A DNA stretch of 64,000 bases. Source: an uncultured Dehalococcoidales bacterium. Its GTDB lineage: Bacteria > Chloroflexota > Dehalococcoidia > E44-bin15. Below, piece by piece: positions 5,101 to 62,350 of this stretch. The stretch is from contig CAYUWM010000002.1 of NCBI GenBank assembly GCA_964448395.1, positions 4,010 through 68,009 on the forward strand. Reading direction: 5' to 3'. Numbering within the stretch: the stretch's first letter is position 1; each line of letters starts with the position of its first letter. The notes beneath the pieces were generated by a model. That model worked only from the letters and a program-made list of their open reading frames with translations, was not told the DNA's origin and did not search any database. Both the position numbers and the translations under genes were made by a program.

Positions 5101-8100
5101 TGTCGCGGGACATCACCGAGCGCAAGCGGGCGGAGGATGCGGTGCGGGAATCGGAGCAGAGGTTCCGCTTGATATTCGAATCCATCGTGGACGGGCTCAC
5201 CGTCACTGACCTCAACGGCAACATTGTCGATATAAATGAGGCGGCGCTCCAATTACACGGGTACAGCGAGAAGCAGGAGATCATCGGGAAAAACACCATC
5301 GAGTATATGGTTGCCGAGGCGGACCGCAAGCGGACGGTAGAGGAGGCGCTGGAGGCCATCGGGCAGGATCGTCCCCTGTCGCGGGCGGAGTACAGGCTGC
5401 AGAGGGCGGATGGGACCGAGTTCGACGGAGAGTTCAGCACCGCCATACTGCGGGATGCCTCCGGTAAGGCAACCGGACATATCGGTATGACGCGGGACAT
5501 CACCGAGCGCAGGCAGGCGGAGGAAGCGATACGCCAGTCGGAGGAGAAACTGCGCATCATGTTCGAATCCATGCGCGATGCCATCGTCCTCACCGACACC
5601 ACCGGTACCATCGTGGAAGTTAATGACGCCACAGTTAAAATGCACGGCTTCGGCAGCAGGGAAGAGATCATCGGCAGAAACGGTATCGAGCTGGTCGCCG
5701 AGAGCGACCGCAAAAAGGTGGCGGAGGCAGCAATAAATCAATCTAAAGGTGAGACGGCCGAAGGACTTATAGAACACCATCTGCTCCTGCGAGCGGACGG
5801 CACCGAGTTCGAGTCCGAGTCCAGCCGCGCAGTACTGCAAGATACCAATGGGAAGACCACCGGGTTCATCGCCGTGGAGCGGGATATCTCCGAACGCAGG
5901 CAAATGGAGCGGGAACTGCTGGAGTCGGCGCAGAAGATACGCCTGGTATTCGAGTCTCTCGGTGACGGGGTCAGTGTAACCGATATGCAGGGCAACCTCA
6001 TAGAGGTCAACGAGGCGGCAGTGCACCTGCACGGATACCGCCGCAAGGAAGAGCTCATCGGCAGGAACGGGCTCGAGCTGGTTGCCGAGGATGACCGCAA
6101 GAGGTGTATGCAGAACGCGCTGCACGCGGCGGAAACGGGTGAGATCCAGTACAGGATGGAGTACAAAATGCTGCGAAAGGGCGCCCGGGAGTTCGACGCT
6201 GATTACACCCTGGCGCCGCTGAAGGACAGCAGTGGAAACATAACCGGCTTCATCGCCATCGTCCGCGACGTAACCGGGCAAAAGCAGGCGGCACAGGCAT
6301 TGGAAGAGAGCGAGTCCAGGTTCCGGGCTCTTGTCGAGAACATGAGCAGCGCCGTCGCAGTATATGAAGTCAAGAACAAGGGGAAGGACTTCATCTTCAA
6401 AGACTTGAATAGCGCCGGGGAGAGGATATCTGACCTGAAGAAAGAGGACATCTTAGATAAGAACTTAGTAGATGTCTTCCCTAACATCAAGAAGGGCGGG
6501 CTTTATCAGGCGATGCGACGGGTATGGAAGACTGGCAAGCCGGAGCATGTCCCGCCCACACTTTACAGGGACGATCGTATATCGGGATGGCGCGAGAACT
6601 ACATCTACAAGCTGCCCACCGGGGAGGTGGTCGCGGTTTACGACGACGTCACCGAGCGCATTCGGGCGGAGGAGGCGCTGCGGGAATCGGGGGAGAAGCT
6701 ACGCACCATGTTCGATTCCACCAATGACTCGTTCATCATCACCGATCTGGAGACCAATGTTGTAGACGTTAACGAGGCAACCCTGCGCACATTCGGTTAC
6801 AGCAAGGAAGAGCTTATCGGGAAAAAGGGCTTCGACCTGATAGCGCCCGAGGACCTGGAAAAGGCTATGGAACCCATGAGCCAGGCGCTGGAAGCGGGGA
6901 AGCCGATGGACAGGATGGAGCTTTCCATCATATGTGGAGACGGGCGTAAGCTGGAGACCGACTTCAGCATCTCCGCGCTGCACGACAGCGCCGGGAATAC
7001 AACCGGGTTCGTCGCCGCTGCCCGCGACATCACCGAGCGCAAACGGGCAGAGGAGGCACTGCGGGAATCGGAGGAGAAGCTGCGTACCATGTTCGAGTCC
7101 ACCAGCGACGGTATCTTGGTCACCGACCCCACACTCAGCATCATACAGACGAACGAGGCCGCCGCACGGATGCTGGGCTTCGCCAGCAAGGAAGCCATGG
7201 TCGGCCAGAGCGCGCTGCCGTATATGTCAGCCGGGACCCGTGGCCCCGCCGGTGCGGAAGACAACGGTGACGGCAAGGTACAGGTCGAGTTCAGCGTCAG
7301 CCAGTTACGTGACAGTTTTGGGAATACTTCGGGCTTTATCGCCGTCGCCCGTGACGTAACCGAACGCAAGAAGGCTGAGGCGCAGCTGAAGAAGATGCTG
7401 CAGGATCTGGAACGATCCAACGCCGAACTGGAGCAGTTCGCCTACATCGCCTCCCACGACCTGCAGGAACCGCTGCGCATGATCTCCAGCTATACACAGC
7501 TGATAGGTCGCCGTTATAAGGGCAAGCTGGATGCCGACGGCGAGGAGTTCATCGAATACGCCGTGGACGGGGCCACCCGCATGCAGGACAGGATCCAGGC
7601 CCTGTTGACCTACTCACGGGTGGGGACGAGGGGCAAGGAGTTCGAGCCCATCGACTGCGAAGATGTGCTAAATGAGGCGCTCGCCAATCTACAGGTAGCG
7701 ATCAAGAAGAGCGATGCGGTAATTACCCACGACCCCCTGCCGACCGTAACCGCCGACGGCATTCAGATGGTGCAGCTGTTCCAGAACCTGATCGAGAACG
7801 GCATCAAGTTCCACGACCAGAATCAACCGCAGGTCCACATCTCCGCCAAAGAGCAGGATGAAGACTGGCTATTCTCCTTCCGCGACAACGGCATCGGCAT
7901 CGACCCGGAGTATAAGGACCGCATCTTCCTGATATTCAAGCGACTGCATGCCAAGGGGGAGTTTGCCGGCACCGGCGTGGGTCTGGCGCTGTGCAAGAAG
8001 ATCGTGGAACGCCACGGCGGGAAGATATGGGTGGAGTCCGAGGTGGGCAAGGGCGCCACCTTTTGCTTCACTATCCCCACAGAAAGAAAGGAGGAAGATA

Positions 8101-22861: not shown

Positions 22862-24655
<1,794 letters not shown>

Positions 24656-24656
<1 letters not shown>

Positions 24657-25810
24657 TGAAAGTCTTTGAAAAAAGATGGGTAGAAGAAATAAGGCAACGT
24701 TATGGCTCCATATCAAAATATACACGCCCTTTTATAGCTTTTCTAGCACTCGAACCAAGAGCTGCAGGAGAAAGAAAAAGGATTGAAGAATGGTTTCAAA
24801 CAATTCCAGACGAGATGAAACCTGACTTTCTGAGCAGGCTGAGAAGTAAAGATGAGAAACAACATTTCAGCGCCTATTATGAATTGCTGTTACGTAGCTT
24901 TTTTCAAAGTAGAGGATTAGATGTTACACTAAATCCCAGTTTAGAAGAGGGAAAACCTGATTTGTTGATAAATGGAATTGAATTAACAAGTCCCTTAATA
25001 GTTGAAGTTGCCACGATTTTTGATGATCCTGATTTCGAAAAGGAATCTCGAAGGCTCAATTTAATCTTAGAGAAGTTAGAGGACATAAAGCACTATTTCT
25101 TCATAATAATATCCGTTACTTCAAGCATCCCGGAACACGTAGATTACAGAAAGCTCGTAAAATTTATAAGAAAATGGCTTGATAGTTATGATCCTCGTAC
25201 AACAACGTCAGAGAAAGATACTACTTATCGAGAAGAGGGATTAGATTTGAAGTTAACCTTGATCCCAAAGCGAACCTTGAGAAGAACATCAATTATTGGA
25301 GGATATATGCCTCCCATCAGACACGTCTCTACAGTTCAACTAAGACGTGCAATAGAGAAGAAGATTCAAAAATACAAGAGTATCAAGAAAGATAAATTAC
25401 CATTCATTGTTGCCACTTGCTTGCACAAAGATACCTTTGTGGGAGAAGAAGAAGCCATTCAGGTCCTGTTTGGACAAGAGATTTATACTATCGATTTGAG
25501 AAGTGGAAAAACTGCAGCAACTACTAGGGATTTAAGTGGTTTGCTTACACATAAGCCAGGATTGGGTGATTTGGCTCAAAACACAAGGTTAAGTGCATTG
25601 CTTCTAGTTACCAGCAAATGGGTAATACAAGAAAAGAACAAAAGTGAACACAGAGCGCATCACTTACATTTAATACGTAATCCAAATGCGGCTGTGCCAT
25701 TGTGTTTTGACCCTTTCGGTGGCTATCCTCAACTAGTCAAAGTTTCAGAAACCTCTGACAAATATGAGTTGAAATGGCTTGATAAAGAGACGGGGAAAAC
25801 CTTCGTCTGA
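24656..25810 (+). CDS. AT-rich hypothetical protein (about 384 aa), likely horizontally acquired
   Basis: The ATG overlaps the eno stop (TGATG). GC drops to roughly 35-40%, against 60% or more in the flanks. No recognisable domain, apart from a weak PD...EVA nuclease-like motif. Confidence 0.6.
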
Positions 25811-45681: not shown

Positions 45682-46635
45682 TTGTCCATATTCATCACCT
45701 TTGAAGGCGGGGAGGGGAGTGGCAAGTCCACCCAGGCGGAGGCGCTGGCGCAGCGCCTGCGGTCGGTGGGCGTCCCCGTGCTGCTGACCCACGAGCCGGG
45801 GGGCACCCCCATGGGCGAGCAGATCAAGGAATGGCTCAAGGATAAAAAGAACAAGGCCGAGGTCAATCTCAACCCGCAGACCGAGCTGCTGCTGTTCAAC
45901 GCCGCCCGCGCGCAGCTGGTGTCCAAGGTGATAAAACCGGCACTGGAGAAAGACACAGTGGTCATCTGCGACCGCTTCTACCACTCCACCATTGCCTATC
46001 AGGGGCACGGCCGCGGCCTCGACCTCGACCTCGTCAAATCGGTTATCGAGCTCGCCACCGGCGGGCTCAAGCCCAACCTCACTATCTTGATGGATATCGA
46101 TGTCCAGAAAGGACTGGCGCGCAAGGAGCTGCTGGACCGCTTCGAGCGGGAGGAGCTCGAATTCCACCAGCGGGTGAGGCAGAGCTACCTGGGAATGGCG
46201 CACAAGGACCCGCAGCGCTGGCTGGTGGTCAACGCATCGCTGGATAAGCAAGAAGTGGAGCAGCTCATCTGGGACTGGGTGGAGCAGCTCCTGCCCGCGA
46301 TGCGCCGGATGGGTAAAAAAGAGGGCGAGGTCGGCAAAGAGATCGCGATACCGGACAAGAAGGATGAAACACAGATTACTGTAGCGCAAGAAAAGGGTGT
46401 AGTGCATGGGGCTCGCCCTGCAGCGACGCAGGTCGTCAAGATAGAGGCGTTATCACCGCCAATGGAGGTCGCCTCCATGACAGGGCCGATAGTGGAAGTG
46501 GATGGAGACGAACCTGGCACACCCGCAGCGCAGGGTGAAAGGGTCGAGGAAGAGGCGAAACCTCCCAAGAAGAAGTCCGCAGCAAAACCGAAGAAGGGCA
46601 CCAAGAAGAGGGTTGCCAAAAAGCAGGGGAAGTAG
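45682..46635 (+). CDS. tmk: Thymidylate kinase with a C-terminal extension of about 110 aa that is Lys-rich
   Basis: N-terminus is FITFEGGEGSGKSTQ. The Tmk core is about 205 aa. The tail ends KKKSAAKPKKGTKKRVAKKQGK. Confidence 0.85.
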   Translation: MSIFITFEGGEGSGKSTQAEALAQRLRSVGVPVLLTHEPGGTPMGEQIKEWLKDKKNKAEVNLNPQTELLLFNAARAQLVSKVIKPALEKDTVVICDRFYHSTIAYQGHGRGLDLDLVKSVIELATGGLKPNLTILMDIDVQKGLARKELLDRFEREELEFHQRVRQSYLGMAHKDPQRWLVVNASLDKQEVEQLIWDWVEQLLPAMRRMGKKEGEVGKEIAIPDKKDETQITVAQEKGVVHGARPAATQVVKIEALSPPMEVASMTGPIVEVDGDEPGTPAAQGERVEEEAKPPKKKSAAKPKKGTKKRVAKKQGK

Positions 46636-46677
46636 TAAAATGTAGCACAGTTACAAACCGGTTGAACCTTTAATTCC

Positions 46678-46772: not shown

Positions 46773-47324
46773 ATGCCCGACAGGATAATCCTCAACGAGG
46801 CGGACATCCGCCGTGCCGTCACCCGCATCGCCCACGAGATCGTGGAGCGCAACCGCGGTTGTGAAGGCCTCACCCTCATCGGTATACACACCCGCGGCGT
46901 GCCGCTGGCCAACCGCATCGCCTCCAGCATCAACGAGCTCGAGAAGGCCAACATCCCCGTGGGCAAAATCGACATCACCCTGCACCGCGACGACATAAAC
47001 TCCGAGGAGAAGATGCCCGCGCTGCGCCCCATCGACATACCACCCGACCTCGAAGAGAAGCGCGTGGTGCTGGTGGACGACGTGCTGTATACCGGTCGAA
47101 CCATCCGCGCCGCCATGGACGCCCTCATCGAATTCGGCCGTCCCCAGGCGATCCAGCTGGTGGCGCTCGTCGACCGCGGGCACCGCGAGCTGCCCATCCG
47201 CGCCGACTACGTGGGCAAGAACCTGCCCACCGCCACCCACGAGGAGGTGCTGGTGCATCTGCAGGAGGTCGACGGTATTGATGAGGTGGCGATCGTAAAA
47301 AACGGACAGGGGGGAGAGCCATGA
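46773..47324 (+). CDS. pyrR: Pyrimidine operon regulator / uracil phosphoribosyltransferase
   Basis: PRTase motif (VVLVDDVLYTGRT). Typical 183-aa length. Confidence 0.9.
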   Translation: MPDRIILNEADIRRAVTRIAHEIVERNRGCEGLTLIGIHTRGVPLANRIASSINELEKANIPVGKIDITLHRDDINSEEKMPALRPIDIPPDLEEKRVVLVDDVLYTGRTIRAAMDALIEFGRPQAIQLVALVDRGHRELPIRADYVGKNLPTATHEEVLVHLQEVDGIDEVAIVKNGQGGEP

Positions 47325-48733
47325 TAAGCCTAGCAAACAGGAGCCTGGTGACCATAGACGATTTCTCCAACGCGGAGATCGAGGCCGTGTTCTCGCTGGC
47401 CGACGAGATGTCGGACGCCGTAACCCGGCAGTCGGACCTGTGCCGGGGCAAGATACTGGCCAGTTTGTTCTTCGAGCCCAGCACCAGGACGCGGATGTCC
47501 TTCGAAGCCGCCATGCACCGGCTGGGGGGGGACGTGATATCGGTGATGGAGATGGGCTCCACCTCGCTGTCCAAGGGGGAGAGCATCGCCGATATGGCAC
47601 GGATCGTGGGCAGCTACGCCGACATCATCGTCATCAGGCACCCGTGGGAAGGGGCAGCGAAGGTGGTGGCCGACTATGCCGGCGTCCCGGTGATCAATGC
47701 CGGCGACGGAGGGCACGAGCACCCCACTCAGACACTGTGCGACCTGTACACCCTCAAGAAGGAGAGGAACACCCTGGAAGGGCTCAAAATAGCGCTGTGG
47801 GGCGACCTCAAATACGGGCGGACTACACATTCTCTGGCCTACGCGCTGGCCCGTTTCGGGGCCACCATCCACTTCCGCCCCGGCGCCGGCCTCGGCCTGC
47901 CGCAGCACGTTATCCGGAAGCTTACCAAGGAGTACGGCGGCATACTGGAGAGCTACGGCGAATCCGGGGGGACTAAAAGCGACAAGACCTTCCCCCTCGA
48001 CGCTATCTATGTGACGCCGAGCAACCCCCACCAGCTCACCAATATCCCCGGCATCAACATCCAGATCGAGATGGAGAAGGGCGTCGATGCCCTGTACGTG
48101 ACCCGCCTCCAGCGGGAGAGGCTGGATGCGGATGCCGGAAAGGACCAGGTATACCCGGTGGTGGACAAGAAGCTGCTCAAGAAGGAGCAGTTCAAGGAGA
48201 CCATCGTGATGCACCCGCTGCCCCGCGTGGACGAGCTGGCCTACGAGATAGACGCTGACCCGCGCAGCATGTACTTCAAGCAGGCGGCTCACGGCGTGCC
48301 GATCAGGATGGCGCTGATGGCGCTGCTGCTGGGGGCAAAAGAGGCCGATATACGGGAGACGGTGCACAACTACGCCCGCAAGAAGGGTTACCCGGTTTAC
48401 AAATGTAACAGCGGGGTGAAATGCGAGAATAAGAAGTGCGTCACCGCCCAGCCCACCGAGACCAGGTATATCAAGCCCGAGTTCATCATAGTGGAGACCA
48501 AGCCGCTGACCCTGCGCTGCCTCTACTGCGAGCACGAGGCGGTCCCGCCGTACTTCGCCAGCCTGAAGTGGCACGAGGGGAAACTGGAGAACAAGCAGTA
48601 CTACCCGTCGCACAGCTACATGGCGGAGCGGATAAGGCCGGAGAACCTGATCATCTTCGGCTCGGAGCGTGACGCCGAGTCCCAGGGTTTCTACCCCAGC
48701 CTCCATCCCCACATATCGGAGAAGAAGGTATAG
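47321..48733 (+). CDS. pyrB: Aspartate carbamoyltransferase catalytic chain fused to a PyrI-like zinc domain
   Basis: STRTR and HPLP motifs give an ATCase core of about 330 aa. This is followed by KCENKKCVTAQPTE...RCLYCEHE (PyrI Zn-domain pattern) and a further tail of about 60 aa. Confidence 0.8.
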   Translation: MISLANRSLVTIDDFSNAEIEAVFSLADEMSDAVTRQSDLCRGKILASLFFEPSTRTRMSFEAAMHRLGGDVISVMEMGSTSLSKGESIADMARIVGSYADIIVIRHPWEGAAKVVADYAGVPVINAGDGGHEHPTQTLCDLYTLKKERNTLEGLKIALWGDLKYGRTTHSLAYALARFGATIHFRPGAGLGLPQHVIRKLTKEYGGILESYGESGGTKSDKTFPLDAIYVTPSNPHQLTNIPGINIQIEMEKGVDALYVTRLQRERLDADAGKDQVYPVVDKKLLKKEQFKETIVMHPLPRVDELAYEIDADPRSMYFKQAAHGVPIRMALMALLLGAKEADIRETVHNYARKKGYPVYKCNSGVKCENKKCVTAQPTETRYIKPEFIIVETKPLTLRCLYCEHEAVPPYFASLKWHEGKLENKQYYPSHSYMAERIRPENLIIFGSERDAESQGFYPSLHPHISEKKV

Positions 48734-48737
48734 CGAT

Positions 48738-50063
48738 ATGCCTAAAGCGCTGCTGATCGCCGGCGGACGGGTCGTAGACCCTGACCAGGACCTGGATATG
48801 GTGTGCGATGTTCTCGTCGCCGATGGCAAGATCGCGTGGGTGGGACCGCGCAAGGGCATGCCCTCGCTGCCGTGCGACGTGCTACACGCCGGGGGGATGG
48901 TGGTCTGCCCCGGGTTCATCGATCTGCACTGCCACCTACGCGAGCCGGGCTTCGAGGACAAGGAGACGATAGCCAGCGGCACCCGTGCCGCGGCCGCCGG
49001 CGGCTTCACCACCGTCTGCGCCATGGCCAACCTCGACCCGCCCACCGATACGGCAGCGGCGGCCGATTTTATCAGGAGGAAGGCGGCAATGGAGGGCGCG
49101 ATTCGCGTGCTGCCGGTGGGGTGTATCACCGCGGGGCGCAAGGGGGAGCTGCTGGTGAACGTAGAGGAGCTGGCGGAGGCCGGCGTGGTGGCCCTCAGCG
49201 ACGATGGCGACGCGGTGAAAGATGCCCGGCTGATGCGCTCCGCTCTGGAGTCCAGCCACCTGTTCGACCTGTTCATCATCGAGCACTGCGAGGATTCATT
49301 GCTGAGCGACGGCGGGGTGATGAACAAGGGCGAGATTGCGGAACGCCTGGGGCTGAAAGGCATACCCGCCGATGCCGAGGAGAGCATGGTGTCCCGCGAC
49401 ATATCGCTGTCGCAGCTGACCGGCGGACACCTGCACATCACCCACGTCAGCACCGACGGCTCGGTGACGCAACTGAGGCACGCCCACGAGATGGGTTACG
49501 CCGTTACCGCCGACGTCACCCCCCACCACCTGACGCTTACCGAGGAGCGGGTTGTCGGCAAAGACGGCAGGGCCGATACCAGAGCCAAGGTGAACCCCCC
49601 GCTGCGGAGCGAGCAGGACGTGGCGGCGCTGGTGGCAGGGCTGCGGGACGGGTATATACAGGCCATCGCCACCGACCACGCCCCCCACACCGCGGCCGAC
49701 AAGGACTGCGATTTCGACAGGGCCGCCTTCGGCATCAGCGGGCTGGAGACCGCGCTGGGCAGCGTCATGTCGCTGGTGCACAGCGGCGACCTGGAGTTGT
49801 CAACGCTGATAGCCAGGCTCACCTCAGGTCCGGCGCGCGTGCTGTGCCGCGACGACATCGGGACGCTGGAGCCGGGCGCCGAGGGAGATTTATGCATATT
49901 CGACCCGAACGCGGAGTGGGTGGTGGACCCCGAGAAGTTCGAATCCAGGGGTAAAAATACCCCGCTAGCCGGAGAGAAGCTGAAGGGCAAAGTGATGGCC
50001 ACCGTTTACGGCGGCAACATCGTGTACAGGGACGACTCGATAAAGCTGGAGACTGAGGGCTAG
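48738..50063 (+). CDS. pyrC: Dihydroorotase
   Basis: Metal-binding DLHCHLREPG motif. About 440 aa. The ATG at 48738 is the likely start. Confidence 0.85.
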   Translation: MPKALLIAGGRVVDPDQDLDMVCDVLVADGKIAWVGPRKGMPSLPCDVLHAGGMVVCPGFIDLHCHLREPGFEDKETIASGTRAAAAGGFTTVCAMANLDPPTDTAAAADFIRRKAAMEGAIRVLPVGCITAGRKGELLVNVEELAEAGVVALSDDGDAVKDARLMRSALESSHLFDLFIIEHCEDSLLSDGGVMNKGEIAERLGLKGIPADAEESMVSRDISLSQLTGGHLHITHVSTDGSVTQLRHAHEMGYAVTADVTPHHLTLTEERVVGKDGRADTRAKVNPPLRSEQDVAALVAGLRDGYIQAIATDHAPHTAADKDCDFDRAAFGISGLETALGSVMSLVHSGDLELSTLIARLTSGPARVLCRDDIGTLEPGAEGDLCIFDPNAEWVVDPEKFESRGKNTPLAGEKLKGKVMATVYGGNIVYRDDSIKLETEG

Positions 50064-50210
50064 AAATTCAAGGGTAGTAAATCGATGCGAGACTAGACGA
50101 TGCACCATGCTGCGCAACCGCTGGGAATCAAGGATTTGCCCCGCATGCGGGGATTCCGGGGAGCAGTAGCGCCTTGCAGCAGCACATGGAGATGGTGAGA
50201 GGATATTGAG

Positions 50211-50978
50211 ATGGATATAGAAAAAACTTTAAAGCTAATTGAAGGGAAAATACAAGAAATACCTGCTCTAAGATGGCCCTGCTTTGATTACAAAAAGAAT
50301 GACGAAGAAGTACATTTGTGGATTAACGACACTCTCTATATAGTTGAGGACGGATTCGGGAGGGATTCTCCAGAATACAAGCGTGTAGCCAATTCATCAA
50401 GGCGTACTAGAGTCATTGACACTTCCAAACAACGTGAAATTAATATGCAGTGCTTAGATTCATGCGAATCTGCACTACAATCAATACTGCGCAATTATGA
50501 AGGAGAAGATTTTACCTCGGTCACTTCTACACCGACTGAGGGGACATTAACTCCTAAGGTATTCATTGCACACGGTAAGGATTCACTAGCACTAACAAAG
50601 CTATGTCGCTTTTTAACACAAATAAGTATTGATCCCCTAGTCGTAGAAGACAAGCCTAGCGAAGGTAGAGCTGTTGACGATAAAGTTGATTTTTATTTAA
50701 ACCAATCTGATTGTGCAATTATATTAGCAACAGGAGATGACCAAATAGACGGCAAGATTCACCCCAGACAAAATGTAATTCACGAAATAGGCTCAGCTCA
50801 AAGAATTTTCCCCCGTAAAATTATCTATCTATTGGAAGGTGGTACTGAATTCCCTTCAAACATTAGTCCTAAAGTCTGGCAGAGTTTCAATCAAGAATGT
50901 ATGGAAGAAGCATTCATTACAATTGCTAGAGAATTAATAGCATTCGGTCTTTTAAAGTCGGTGAAACCTGAACAATGA
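50211..50978 (+). CDS. AT-rich protein with a C-terminal TIR-like domain (COG4271-type) and an N-terminal domain of about 115 aa with no recognisable match
   Basis: The C-terminus (KVFIAHGKD...RQNVIHEIGSAQRIFPRKIIYLLEGGTEFPSNIS) matches the COG4271 consensus (KVFIVHGHD...RARQNVIFELGYF...GVELPSD). GC is roughly 37%, against more than 60% in the flanks. Confidence 0.65.
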   Translation: MDIEKTLKLIEGKIQEIPALRWPCFDYKKNDEEVHLWINDTLYIVEDGFGRDSPEYKRVANSSRRTRVIDTSKQREINMQCLDSCESALQSILRNYEGEDFTSVTSTPTEGTLTPKVFIAHGKDSLALTKLCRFLTQISIDPLVVEDKPSEGRAVDDKVDFYLNQSDCAIILATGDDQIDGKIHPRQNVIHEIGSAQRIFPRKIIYLLEGGTEFPSNISPKVWQSFNQECMEEAFITIARELIAFGLLKSVKPEQ

Positions 50979-51078
50979 CAAGGTGTATAAAGAGTAGCTT
51001 GTTAAGGCAGAACACCACCGTAACCGGGCGGGCTGCGGCGCGGTGTGAATATAAATAAATTATAAAGGAGGATACTGC

Positions 51079-54302
<3,224 letters not shown>

Positions 54303-54306
<4 letters not shown>

Positions 54307-55055
54307 AGCGTATCCTCGCCCCGGTCATATCCAACGACGAGGTCATGCGCGGCGTCTACCTTATGTGGGCCCAGGCCCCCGCCGTAGCGTCCGCTGCCAG
54401 GCCGGGGCAGTTCGTCATGGTCAAGGCCAGCGATAACTGCGACCCGCTGCTGCGGCGCCCGCTGAGCATCCACCGCGTGAGGAAGGACGGGACGATCGCC
54501 CTGCTCATCGAGGTCATCGGACGGGGGACGGAGTGGCTCGTCCAGCGGCAGGCGGGGGAACAGCTCGACCTGCTGGGGCCGCTGGGAAACGGCTTCGATA
54601 TCCGTGCCAGAAACCTGTTGCTGGTTGCCGGCGGCTGCGGCATCGCGCCCCTGGTATTCCTCGCAGAGAAGGCCCTGGCCAAAAAGCGTCACATGATTAT
54701 GCTGGTGGGGGCCAGGAGTGCCGACCGGGTCTATCCCCGCGAGCTGCTGCCGGCAGATATCGCCACCGTCACCATCACCGAGGACGGCTCGATGGGGGAG
54801 CGGGGCATGTCCACCGACCTGATGGCCGAATATACCAATTCCCATGAGCAGATATTCGCCTGCGGCCCGGCCGATATGTATCGGGCTATGGCGGGGCTCG
54901 ACTGGTTGAAAGACAAATCGGTACAGGTATCGCTGGAGGCCAGGATGGGTTGCGGCTTCGGCTGCTGCTTCGGCTGCACCATCGAGACCAGACGGGGATC
55001 GAAGCGGGTGTGCAAGGACGGGCCCGTCTTCCAGCTCGGCGATCTATTGCTGTAA
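54303..55055 (+). CDS. pyrK: Dihydroorotate dehydrogenase electron-transfer subunit
   Basis: FAD/NAD-binding fold plus the C-terminal CxxGxCxxC...C 2Fe-2S motif (CGFGCCFGC). TTG start overlaps carB. Confidence 0.8.
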
Positions 55056-55608: not shown

Positions 55609-56079
55609 ATGGCCGATGAACAAACAGCATCGCTGAAGAAGGCGCTAGCCAAGTTCGAGCTCTTCATGTGGCTCACCGACGACGAACTGGAAAAGGTCGC
55701 CGCGCTGAGCCGTGAGGAGAGCTTCGCCGCGGGGATTAGCATTATCGCTGAAGGCGCAACCGCCCACGACCTGTACATGGTGGAGGAAGGGCAGGTGAGG
55801 GTGGAGATGAGCCTTTCCGTCTACCCCGGCCTGGTGCAGGACTCCCTGGTGGAGATTATACCCAAGGGGGAGCCGTTCGGCTGGTCCGCGGTTATCGGCT
55901 CCCGCGTGTACACCATGACGGCACGGGCCATGGAGCAGGTCAAGGTTATCGCTATAGACGGGGAGAAGCTGCTTGCCCTGTTCAACAAGAATCCCGACAT
56001 CGGGTTCAAGGTAATGGAGGGGCTGGTATCAGTGGTTTCCCAGAGGGTGAGGAGCGTCAAGAAGACACTTCTTGTATAA
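55609..56079 (+). CDS. Stand-alone cNMP-binding-domain protein, paralog type A
   Basis: Single CAP-effector-like beta-barrel with no HTH. The phosphate-binding cassette is degenerate (FGWSAV...TARA instead of FGE.AL...R[ST]A). Confidence 0.65.
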   Translation: MADEQTASLKKALAKFELFMWLTDDELEKVAALSREESFAAGISIIAEGATAHDLYMVEEGQVRVEMSLSVYPGLVQDSLVEIIPKGEPFGWSAVIGSRVYTMTARAMEQVKVIAIDGEKLLALFNKNPDIGFKVMEGLVSVVSQRVRSVKKTLLV

Positions 56080-56142
56080 TTCGATCGGGTGCTATTTTGC
56101 AGGAAGGCATAACGCTGGTGACGGGGGAGAAGAGGGAGAACA

Positions 56143-56607
56143 GTGGCTACTATTAAAGAGACGCTCGCCAACTCGGAGCTGTTCAAGGGGCTCACCGATG
56201 AAGAGCTGGATCGGGTAGCATCAGTATCCCGCGTGGAGATCTACGAGGGGGGCGCCATTTTATTCACCGAGGGCAGCACTGCAGAGGACCTCTACATTAT
56301 CGAGCTGGGTAAGGTGGCCATGGATATGAGCCTCTCCGGCACCCCGGGCATGGGCAAGCAGGCCAGCGTGGAGACCATGACCAAGGGGCAGGGATGTGGA
56401 TGGTCCGCGCTTTCAGGCACTCCGGTTTATACCCTTACGGCACGGGCCATCGAGCCGGTACGGGTAATCGCTATAGACGGAGGCCGCCTCTACAATCTGC
56501 TCAAAGAGGACCCCTATCTGGGCTATCGGATAATGTCGCGGATGGCGACGGCGATTTCCGCCAGGCTCAGGAACATCAGGATGACGATGCGGCTGTTCAA
56601 TCGCTAG
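56143..56607 (+). CDS. Stand-alone cNMP-binding-domain protein, paralog type B
   Basis: GTG start. Ends RLRNIRMTMRLFNR. Confidence 0.65.
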   Translation: MATIKETLANSELFKGLTDEELDRVASVSRVEIYEGGAILFTEGSTAEDLYIIELGKVAMDMSLSGTPGMGKQASVETMTKGQGCGWSALSGTPVYTLTARAIEPVRVIAIDGGRLYNLLKEDPYLGYRIMSRMATAISARLRNIRMTMRLFNR

Positions 56608-56806
56608 AGCCACACTACATGGAATTATCCTTTGCTGTATAGATGACAATATTACTCTCCACAATCTCATTAACAGCGGAACATCATTGCAGCGGAAACC
56701 CGGCAATTAATCGTCTTTCAGCCGCCTGTACCGAATATATGATGAAGTGTCACTGGGAAGAAATGCTTACCTGCACTCCACGCCACAGCGAAAGGGCTAA
56801 AGCCTG

Positions 56807-57262
56807 ATGGCCTCTATAAAAACGGCTCTGGCGAACTCCGCCCTGTTCAACAAGCTAACCGATGAGGAACTGGATAAGATAGCCTCGCTGAGCCGTCAGG
56901 AGGTATACCCCGAAGGCACCCTGCTTTTCTCAGAAGGGACGATGGCTACCGACCTTTACATCGTCGGTGCGGGTCAAGTGGCGGTGGAGATGAAACTCGC
57001 AGTCTACGCCGGCCTGGTGCAGAAGGCCACGGTGGAGATCATCCTCGAGGGGGATACCTTCGGCTGGTCGGCAGTCCTCGGCTCCCTGATATACTCCCTG
57101 TCGGCCAGGGCCCTGGAGCCGGTCAGGGTTATCACCATAGACGGAGACCGCCTGCACTCTATGCTGGATGAAAACCCGGATATGGGCTATCGGGTAATGA
57201 CTGGTCTGGTAGAGGTCGTCTCTTCAAGGTTGGGAAGTATCAAGAAGACCCTCTTGGTCTGA
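56807..57262 (+). CDS. Stand-alone cNMP-binding-domain protein, paralog type A
   Basis: Ends KKTLLV, as does the first paralog. Confidence 0.65.
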   Translation: MASIKTALANSALFNKLTDEELDKIASLSRQEVYPEGTLLFSEGTMATDLYIVGAGQVAVEMKLAVYAGLVQKATVEIILEGDTFGWSAVLGSLIYSLSARALEPVRVITIDGDRLHSMLDENPDMGYRVMTGLVEVVSSRLGSIKKTLLV

Positions 57263-57330
57263 GCGTCCTGCTGAACCAGCACTGGACGATATGCCACGGA
57301 CCGTTATATAATTAACCTTCGGGGAATCAG

Positions 57331-57792
57331 TTGACCACCGTTAAAGAGGCTCTAGCACAATCCGATATATTCAAGGGTCTGCCTGACGAATGGCTGATAG
57401 AGATAGGCGAGCTGGTAGAGCCGAAAGAATACCAGGCCAAAGAATATCTTTTCCTCGAGGGAGATGAGCCCACCAACATGTACATCGTGCAGGTGGGCAA
57501 GGTGGCTATGGACCTCAGCATGTCCCCCATCCCCGGGGTCGGGAACCAGACCACAGTGGACACCCTGACCAGGGGGCAGACGTGCGGCTGGTCGTCGGTG
57601 GTGGGAAGTCCCTATTCCATGACCGCAAGATGTATCGATCCAGTGGGCGTTTTGGCTATCAACGGTCCCTTACTGCGCTCACTGTTGGACAGCAAACCGG
57701 AGATGGGATATAAGGTGATGGAGAGCATGGCATGGGTGGTCATCTCCAGGCTGAGGAACATCAGGATGGCGACCCGCATGCTCAACCGCTAG
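57331..57792 (+). CDS. Stand-alone cNMP-binding-domain protein, paralog type B
   Basis: TTG start. Ends RLRNIRMATRMLNR. Confidence 0.65.
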   Translation: MTTVKEALAQSDIFKGLPDEWLIEIGELVEPKEYQAKEYLFLEGDEPTNMYIVQVGKVAMDLSMSPIPGVGNQTTVDTLTRGQTCGWSSVVGSPYSMTARCIDPVGVLAINGPLLRSLLDSKPEMGYKVMESMAWVVISRLRNIRMATRMLNR

Positions 57793-62103: not shown

Positions 62104-62350
62104 AACCCACCTCCGGTTACACCATATAACGACTGAACAAAAAGAAAAGCCCGGTAGAGTGGTTCAAGCCACCCTACTGGGCTAAATACATAAAAAAACC
62201 TCCACAAGGAGGCATGCAGATAATATCTACTAACAGCAAAGCCCTCCTTTCCACAACGGGGGGCGCAGGCGTTTCCCCCTGCACCGTATCGGCTGCCCGC
62301 CATGCCCCACGGTTTAGGCGCGGCAACTCGGAAAGCTAGTATTCAGTTTT
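62104..62350 (-). ncRNA. Long structured 5' leader of the tungstate/molybdate transporter operon; candidate Moco/Wco-type riboswitch
   Basis: Leader of about 240 nt. Contains CCGAG...GUGGAAAGGAGGG, several GC-rich stems, and a CCUCC-ACAA-GGAGG hairpin plus U7 about 90 nt before the start codon. Confidence 0.35.

Follow-up and report, generated by a model that had tools for sequence, protein, structure and literature searches.

The TIR effectors Cap12 (TIR-STING, SfSTING; PDB 7un8) of the cyclic oligonucleotide-based antiphage signalling system (CBASS) and PycTIR of the pyrimidine cyclase system for antiphage resistance (Pycsar) are the founding members of the family PF10137, and PF08937 is the ThsB family of Thoeris. 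Hotspots in which core genes flank variable immune cargo are known in Enterobacteria, Pseudomonas and Vibrio, and defence hotspots have usually been described between operons or by tRNA genes and mobile elements. In this study we describe a gene for a 255-aa protein with a PF10137-type domain (the TIR gene), which lies inside the pyrimidine biosynthesis (pyr) operon of an uncultured Dehalococcoidales bacterium (Chloroflexota), in a stretch of 64,000 nucleotides (assembly GCA_964448395.1, contig CAYUWM010000002.1, positions 4,010 to 68,009 of the forward strand) that is called the window below. We hold with moderate confidence that this gene is a stand-alone, promoterless single-gene abortive-infection effector of the candidate family PDC-S35, situated in a hotspot at which cargo genes are swapped. 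PDC-S35 is one of the phage defence candidates (PDCs) of PADLOC, 145 candidates defined by their embedding in BREX, DISARM, type I restriction-modification (RM) or Hma systems (Payne et al., bioRxiv 10.1101/2024.01.29.577857). Our literature search found no paper naming PDC-S35 and no description of a pyr-operon hotspot in Dehalococcoidia. The relatives of the window pyrC likewise place the host among the Dehalococcoidales. Below, loci of relatives carry L numbers and homologous proteins P numbers.

The TIR-like domain and its predicted active site

The only Pfam match of the 255-aa protein is PF10137, the TIR domain of CAP12/Pycsar effectors (aa 116-227, E=1.2e-18, 67.7 bits against a cutoff of 24.7); it spans model positions 1-118 of 119 and passes the curated threshold. 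The first-pass annotation of the window, made by a model from the letters and their open reading frames (ORFs), had assigned the C-terminal half of the protein to a TIR-like class, and the profile search bore this out. PADLOC model PDLC05005 (PDC-S35) matched the full protein (aa 1-247 against model positions 1-255 of 264, E=1e-27), and the NCBIfam profiles gave no match. In an AlphaFold2 (AF2) model built on 31 homologues (pLDDT 85.6), the N-domain (aa 3-97) is helical, aa 99-111 form a disordered linker, and aa 116-244 fold into a flavodoxin-like α/β domain, which has the TIR/flavodoxin-like fold of PF10137-type TIR domains. When the family profile was compared with the PDB, it matched Cap12/SfSTING (E=7e-6), with PRQNVIHEIG aligned to PRDNVVFEFG, and Cap12 was the best match of the TIR domain by both structure and profile.

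In SfSTING the residues F6, R78, N80 and E84 have catalytic or NAD-pocket roles, E84 being the catalytic Glu, and D110 completes the active site of the neighbouring subunit within the filament (PMC9402430). The corresponding residues F118, R186, N188 and E192 of the window protein are all invariant in the 31-homologue alignment. Identity to the nearest homologues of full length is just 38-48%, and 34 alignment columns are invariant among these homologues, including all the predicted catalytic and pocket residues. The position of D110 is taken by the near-invariant N217 of the FPSNI loop. Judged by profile and predicted fold, the C-terminal half is a TIR-like domain of the CAP12/Pycsar clade, and it probably serves as an NAD-destroying effector domain.

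The N-terminal four-helix module

The first-pass annotation saw no recognisable match for the N-terminal part of the protein. Pfam has none; this part is nevertheless the N-module of PDC-S35, since it aligns with positions 1-~100 of PDLC05005, and a profile search recovered it in 607 representative clusters at E<=1e-3 (184 at E<=1e-10). Modelled alone, the domain formed a confident four-helix bundle with a pLDDT of 90.5 and helices at 3-21, 27-49, 54-62 and 71-97. The architecture of the hits was sorted for the best 151 only: in 27 this TIR follows a single or double copy of the domain, 67 have a different C-terminal region, and 57 are short. One of the short hits (P0109, L083) stands alone as a 93-aa protein within a contig of 120 kb, and the others may be contig-end fragments. 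The same locus has a RusA-family gene between panC and panB (5390-7968, minus strand); the cluster panC, RusA, panB, panD adjoins the standalone homologue, and the RusA-family gene may be a further accessory gene embedded in a biosynthetic operon.

A domain scan that covered 20 of the proteins with other tails found PF09509 (Hypoth_Ymh) in nine of them and a PLD-like tail in two, the latter matching PADLOC PDC-S05 (E ~1e-31). All three Hypoth_Ymh proteins that were run against PADLOC matched Aga_HEPN and PD-Lambda-3_B, and the N-regions of the scanned proteins matched the PDC-S35 model over its first ~100 positions. As far as these profiles indicate, the N-domain is thus a widespread module that is also fused to HEPN-like and PLD-like effectors. 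Conflict systems are usually built from a constant module to which one or another toxic effector domain is joined, and such a build disfavours reading the protein as a housekeeping enzyme.

A slot of exchangeable cargo at the carA|carB junction

The TIR gene has a GC content of 0.382 and a third-position GC content (GC3) of 0.293, as compared with a GC3 of 0.83-0.89 in pyrR, pyrBI, pyrC, carB and pyrK (0.85-0.86 in the upstream native genes pyrR, pyrB/pyrI and pyrC). Over ~50190-51010 the GC content is 0.38-0.42, against 0.62-0.69 in the flanking pyrC and carB, and when the whole window was scanned in 700-nt windows, one other stretch (~24.5-25.9 kb) was equally AT-rich. No transposase or integrase ORF was found within 44-58 kb of the window. 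The earlier description of a compositionally foreign gene lacking a mobility gene therefore agrees with our data. The drop in GC reported for a segment of about 1 kb is also real, but the first ~125 nt of that segment (50064-50190) are a remnant of carA and not AT-rich foreign DNA; the foreign segment extends from ~50156-50200 to ~51012.

The carA relic ends in a carA tail, ATGGAGATGGTGAGAGGATATTGA (50186-50209, ..MEMVRGY*), which carries the Shine-Dalgarno-like GAGAGGA preceding the TIR gene. Its ..EMVR.. resembles the genuine carA ends of L063 and L076 (..FLEMVREGQ*). At the DNA level the relic is homologous to that of L003 and L060, which reads ..RDIDDGLQYIMAENRGFAPLAGI..KMVWG* and aligns to carA ..KDLASGKVRITAQNHGFA.. 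with z=3.6-7.4 against shuffles. Intact carA was not found anywhere in the 64-kb window by tblastn, and the order in other Dehalococcoidia is pyrC, carA, carB. Taken together, the relic at the left flank and the gene order elsewhere indicate that the slot is the ancestral carA|carB junction, from which carA has been deleted in the window lineage. With the carB of other Dehalococcoidia the window carB shares only ~43-45% identity, but with the carB of L072 it shares 85%, and in the L072 lineage, too, pyrC is directly followed by carB.

The closest relative, L003 (pyrC 88% identical at the protein level), has the same conserved flanks and a different cargo, an AT-rich gene on the same strand for a 289-aa protein with an SLFN AlbA_2 domain (E=1e-14) that matches PADLOC PDC-S50. 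When metagenomes were scanned with the right-flank motif, the same AlbA_2/PDC-S50 allele turned up in L061 and a third, likewise AT-rich allele in L060, whose 379-aa product has no Pfam match and a C-terminus weakly like PD-T7-5. The swapping is recent: L003 and L060 are 99.26% identical in DNA over 3.39 kb (pyrR, pyrB, pyrC and the relic), yet their cargo differs; identity declines from ~100% to 83-93% in the last ~120 nt (the relic) before the cargo and then to 53%, and these steps look like a recombination tract beginning near the pyrC end. The slot is a cargo-swapping hotspot, because near-identical backbones hold different AT-rich, defence-like genes; conserved flanks with varied defence-like cargo in close relatives are what distinguishes core-gene-flanked defence hotspots. 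Apparently, homologous recombination between the conserved pyr genes on either side brings about the exchange of alleles. At the right edge of the slot the carB leader (51013-51078) is kept in L003, L060 and L061 irrespective of the cargo and is single-copy in the window, and its hairpin is no more stable than shuffles (z=-0.2). In addition, two short assemblies from the source population, L001 (JGI 3300031277) and L002 (SRR8556602), begin at 50182/50183, within 1 nt of each other, although they are possibly from the same sample and hence perhaps non-independent. These starts fit an assembly-graph branch at the edge of the cargo, which points to population heterogeneity at the junction.

In other Dehalococcoidia cargo occurs at both the pyrC|carA and the carA|carB junctions, and some junctions are tight (Table 1). 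Across the class the carA|carB junction is, by these comparisons, a recurrent cargo slot to which the gene family is tied, which differs from the single insertion splitting pyrC from carB that the first-pass annotation had pictured. The second AT-rich island of the window (24653-25810, plus strand, GC 0.36-0.39) encodes a 385-aa protein, the start of which overlaps the stop codon of enolase. Neither Pfam nor PADLOC gave a match for this protein, which is homologous to the 379-aa slot gene product of L060 (24% identity, E=5e-8). Because of this homology, other intra-operon sites are seemingly fed by the same cargo pool.

Genomic contexts of the gene family

Genomic context was readable for 12 distinct family members (Table 1), and eight of them touch carA, carB, pyrC or pyrK. 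The start of the family gene overlaps the carA stop in L063 and L076. The operon-embedded copies that were measured all have a GC content of 0.37-0.43, as against 0.51-0.64 in their hosts; thus no relative was found to carry the gene in the pyr operon at native composition, a finding that would have spoken against foreign origin. A copy of the last ~8 carA codons (CTGGAGATGGTGAGGGA.., LEMVREGK*, with overlapping ATG) travels with the family gene. It is present in L071 and L074 without an upstream carA, and also in L079, where the genuine carA end lies 250 nt further upstream. The travelling tail implies that the ancestral order was carA and then the gene, translationally coupled, and that the module has moved since. 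In L074, L076 and L079 carB is 89-90% identical and the TIR alleles just 50-61%, and on this ground vertical co-inheritance of gene and operon was rejected as the sole explanation.

An element of the IS200/IS605 insertion sequence (IS) type abuts the stop of the homologous TIR gene in L063 (6745-7424) and in L071 (2098-2803); it comprises left-end hairpins (ATTGGAGCGGGTGCTCCAAT ... GCTGGAGCACCTGCTCCAGC) and a Y1_Tnp gene. Since it abuts the gene both at carA|carB and at carB|pyrK, co-movement of the TIR gene and the IS is suggested. In L079/L080 the ~250 nt that separate carA from the TIR module contain several GC-rich palindromes resembling repetitive extragenic palindromic (REP) elements, e.g. 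CCCCTTCCCTTGTAAGGGAAGGGGG and CTCCCCCTCTCCTTTGAAGGAGAGGGGGAC, which stand between the real carA end and the duplicated carA tail. In L066-L068 (2442-3764) the TIR homologue lies between the homoserine dehydrogenase and threonine synthase genes and is followed by a gene for a 191-aa HEAT/TPR-like protein; carB, pyrK and YjbQ are 3 kb off on the other strand. Phage origin of the gene was rejected, as the only relatives in IMG/VR and the GenBank phages are distant TIR-only proteins (28-37% identity) that all lack the N-domain. On plasmids, distant PF10137 'nucleotide-binding proteins' are numerous (24-31% identity).

The operon and its neighbourhood

The operon runs pyrR, pyrB/I, pyrC, TIR gene, carB, pyrK, all on the plus strand. 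The site at 46613-46641 is the sole promoter-like site on this strand upstream of the operon and is likely, from its consensus match, to be the operon promoter. Neither a promoter nor a terminator was found flanking the TIR gene, and one promoter-like match within its ORF (50696-50725) is within chance expectation. This absence, together with the operon-foreign composition, was counted in favour of promoterless foreign cargo. A second PyrR site or other RNA element by the TIR gene was considered and rejected, since a permissive Rfam scan of 49900-51300 returned noise (E >= 0.75). A molybdenum cofactor riboswitch (RF01055) is located at 62228-62345 on the minus strand (58 bits against a gathering score of 36).

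Downstream of the operon, 5 kb from the TIR gene, stands a quartet of cyclic nucleotide monophosphate (cNMP)-binding genes, and a connection of these with the TIR gene had been called speculative. That caution was justified. In L004, which lacks the TIR gene, the first two genes (cnmp1 and cnmp2) are present at the same place as 80%-identical orthologues, so the quartet is native and unrelated, and the proposed link was rejected.

Table 1. Features of the window, contexts of the TIR gene family and cargo at pyr junctions of other Dehalococcoidia
Feature	Position or locus	Strand	Remarks
TIR cargo gene	50211-50978	+	255-aa ORF; N-helical + TIR protein, PADLOC PDC-S35 family
N-terminal four-helix-bundle domain, aa 1-100	50211..50510	+	AF2; swappable putative sensor or regulatory module
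TIR-like domain, aa 116-244	50556..50942	+	putative catalytic Glu192 codon at 50784-50786
Decayed carA relic, ~45 codons	50064..50209	+	in-frame reading ..ATAGNQGFAPHAGIPGSSSALQQHMEMVRGY*
Cargo-specific 3' untranslated tail	50979..51012	+	four-way alignment: absent from other cargo alleles
carB leader CACCACCG..CCGGGCGGGCTGCGGCGCGGTGT..ATATAAATAAAT..AAGGAGGA	51013..51078	+	native, conserved; right edge of slot
Promoter-like site TTGCCA-17-TAAAAT	46613..46641	+	10/12 consensus matches; consensus match only
PyrR-binding attenuator leader RF00515	46663..46773	+	Rfam 54.3 bits against gathering score 54; full-length model match
pyrR	46773-47324	+	native; L063 orthologue with Pribosyltran domain
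Fused pyrB/pyrI	47321-48733	+	native; L063 orthologue with OTCace_N/OTCace/PyrI_C domains
pyrC	48669/48738-50063	+	native; L063 orthologue with Amidohydro_1/DHOase domains
carB	51079-54306	+	native, operon continues; GC3 0.89
pyrK	54303-55055	+	native, operon continues; GC3 0.84
cNMP-binding quartet	55609-57792	+	four tandem paralogues after YjbQ, 151-156 aa, 33-57% mutual identity
Family member: window gene	window		carA relic, TIR gene, carB
Family member: P0002	L063		carA, gene, IS200-like element, carB
Family member: P0041	L076/L077		carA, gene, carB; start overlaps carA stop; carB starts 6 nt past stop
Family member: P0010	L079/L080		carA, 51-aa ORF, gene, carB
Family member: P0052	L074		HicAB, gene, carB
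Family member: P0013	L071-73		carB, gene, IS200-like element, pyrK
Family member: P0044	L081		pyrC, carA-tail relic, 75-aa membrane ORF, gene, pyrK
Family member: P0118 (two N-modules + Ymh)	L084		immediately past carA 3' end
Family member: P0021	L066		between hom and thrC
Family member: P0019	L069		within defence-island-like region
Family member: P0078	L078		context could not be clearly read
Family member: P0109 (N-domain only)	L083		between MFS transporter gene and panC
Junction cargo	L004		284-aa AT-rich gene, no assigned function
Junction cargo	L047		AlbA_2 gene + RNase_H_2 gene
Junction cargo	L012, L013, L016, L049, L050, L006, L041		VapBC-like pairs
Junction cargo	L007, L017, L050		NucS_C/PDC-S11 gene, E=9e-32
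Junction cargo	L011		PolB-exonuclease/RNase-H-like gene
Junction cargo	L063		SEC-C/HEPN-like gene
Tight junctions, cargo-free	L009, L014, L015, L048

Discussion

A role in defence is the best reading of the TIR gene because the protein is a full-length match to PDC-S35, its N-domain is one that HEPN-like and PLD-like effectors also have, and in relatives the slot is filled by alternative defence-like genes. A possible function of this kind had been raised in the first-pass annotation, and with these comparisons we regard it as probable. We propose that transcripts from the pyr promoter would read through into the gene, and that its translation would begin from the Shine-Dalgarno-like sequence of the carA-tail relic. 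The protein would presumably stay idle until a trigger, perhaps a phage product, acts via the N-module; the TIR domains would then pack, so that the FPSNI loop of a neighbour completes the pocket round Glu192 as in SfSTING filaments. Hydrolysis of NAD+ would then stop the metabolism of the infected cell, i.e. lead to abortive infection. Turnover of the cargo would take place by homologous recombination in the conserved pyr flanks.

Several points weigh against this proposal. PDC-S35 is known as a candidate family only, one defined by genomic embedding, and transcription of the TIR gene by read-through is something we infer. The N-domain has no significant or informative fold relative in the PDB, its matches being generic four-helix bundles, and the position matching D110 of SfSTING is Asn, not Asp. 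Finally, the placement of eight of the 12 family members in the pyr operon and the translational coupling to carA could mean a functional tie to pyrimidine metabolism and not simply a site of landing.

Such a tie could take the form of a defence in which the position itself is part of the mechanism. Effectors sharing the N-module (TIR, HEPN-like or PLD-like), placed in the PyrR-attenuated operon and coupled in translation to carA, would be switched on when pyrimidine nucleotides fall, as would happen in phage replication, the PyrR leader acting as the infection sensor, or else the four-helix N-module would guard carbamoyl-phosphate synthetase or pyrimidine synthesis directly. We consider this unlikely, but if either version were true, a single metabolic operon would have a defence module tied to it throughout a bacterial class.

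The gene might also bring no anti-phage benefit, being a toxin of the selfish or addictive type, or a passenger in decay, that just persists at an intergenic site which tolerates it. VapBC and HicAB toxin-antitoxin pairs are found at the same junctions, in L063 and L071 an IS200-like Y1 transposase lies right against the gene, a standalone N-domain protein of 93 aa exists, and the defence activity of PDC-S35 is that of a candidate only. Against this stand the intact ORF, the 34 invariant columns that include all predicted catalytic and pocket residues, and the absence of an adjacent antitoxin-like partner in the window. Moreover, alleles that are 50-61% identical at one locus with carB at 89-90% form a pattern typical of diversifying immune loci. 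A toxin or passenger of this kind has, in our estimate, a small chance of being the right answer.

The tie to pyrimidine metabolism could alternatively be enzymatic. The protein would then be a pyrimidine-nucleotide N-glycosidase of the MilB/DNPH1/nucleoside-deoxyribosyltransferase kind with a functional tie to the pyr operon, and it would work either in metabolism or regulation or as a defence protein that depletes (modified) pyrimidine nucleotides instead of NAD+. The fold is similar to those of MilB and the deoxyribosyltransferases, one phage match is annotated as a CMP/hydroxymethyl hydrolase, and the recurrent position of the family beside carA, carB, pyrC or pyrK (8/12 contexts), including the overlap with the carA stop in L063 and L076, would suit such an enzyme. 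However, the domain falls in PF10137 with no nucleoside-deoxyribosyltransferase family at E<=1, and Cap12 is its best structural and profile match. An N-module common to HEPN-like and PLD-like effectors would make no sense in a pyrimidine enzyme. The TIR gene is replaced by unrelated genes in near-identical backbones, is absent from the tight pyrC-carA-carB arrangement of many relatives (sporadic presence), and has foreign codon usage. We therefore find this interpretation quite improbable.

That the gene is instead a cassette of a dedicated site-specific system (integron-like attC/IntI or an IS200/IS605 passenger), and not moved by homologous recombination, is very unlikely: the cargo has sharp limits from the carA stop to the carB leader and a uniform orientation, and at two loci and two operon positions IS200-like left-end hairpins and Y1_Tnp come right after the TIR stop, but there is no integrase or transposase near the gene in the window, the flanking hairpins are single-copy with stability no better than that of shuffles, the cargo 3' tails of 34-54 nt are too short for attC and not conserved, and the stepwise drop in L003/L060 identity fits a recombination tract. 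REP-like or attC-like flanks were rejected in the same way, both hairpins being single-copy in the window with folding z-scores of 0.19, -0.23 and -0.37 against shuffles. Of the marks of an integron cassette (attC at the 3' end, IntI and attI), neither a conserved 3' tail nor an integrase ORF was found, and an adjacent Y1/HUH transposase with subterminal hairpins, the mark of IS200/IS605, is missing in the window and present in L063 and L071-73.

What is new lies in the surroundings of the TIR gene: in Dehalococcoidia the carA|carB junction is a hotspot for defence-type genes inside an operon, one gene family is bound to this hotspot, and the N-module is swappable. The hotspot lies within an essential biosynthetic operon of slow-growing, largely uncultured bacteria, and AT-rich, promoterless single genes of immune type are swapped there between strains that are otherwise 99% identical at this locus. 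The slot is thus a place to mine single-gene defence candidates in a poorly studied phylum, and the natural series of one N-module on TIR, HEPN-like and PLD-like effectors should help to find what the module senses. The locus also offers a testable idea, namely that expression of an abortive-infection effector is tied to a nucleotide-sensing attenuator, and it lends indirect, context-based support to the PADLOC candidate PDC-S35.

Comparison with known systems

The window protein resembles Cap12 and PycTIR in its TIR subfamily, the catalytic Glu, the R/N/F pocket residues and a conserved loop at the position of SfSTING D110, and by analogy an oligomerisation-gated NADase mechanism similar to theirs is likely. 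It differs from them in that a STING, SAVED or cNMP-binding sensor domain is lacking, as is a nearby cyclase gene; its putative sensor is an unrelated N-terminal four-helix bundle, with the TIR domain at the C-terminus. CBASS and Pycsar are recognised by a CD-NTase or PycC gene and a ligand-binding sensor, and here the neighbours are pyrC and carB. Thoeris is recognised by ThsB next to a ThsA-type gene, and here no effector gene is adjacent and the domain is PF10137, not PF08937. As cyclase, ligand-binding sensor domain and partner effector are all lacking, the gene belongs to none of CBASS, Pycsar and Thoeris.

With MilB, DNPH1 and the nucleoside 2-deoxyribosyltransferases the protein shares the flavodoxin-like fold and a catalytic Glu at the equivalent helix, but it is not a member of their sequence profiles, and the extra N-module and variable-effector relatives point to a conflict system. 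The occurrence of one N-module with TIR, HEPN-like (Ymh) or PLD-like C-termini is reminiscent of polymorphic-toxin loci, at least the TIR and Ymh versions being found in the slot downstream of carA. In contrast to those toxins, the window protein is intracellular, with neither an immunity gene beside it nor domains for secretion or delivery.

PDC-S35 has the same architecture, a helical N-module followed by a PF10137 TIR domain, but PDCs are embedded in known defence systems, whereas the window gene lies in a biosynthetic operon. A similar contrast holds for the known hotspots. The conserved flanks, the variable, defence-like and AT-rich cargo, and the swaps between 99.3%-identical backbones are features that they share with the slot described here. 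The slot, however, lies inside one co-directional biosynthetic operon, between the genes of two subunits of one enzyme, it usually holds one promoterless gene that is coupled to carA in translation, and its hosts are Dehalococcoidia.

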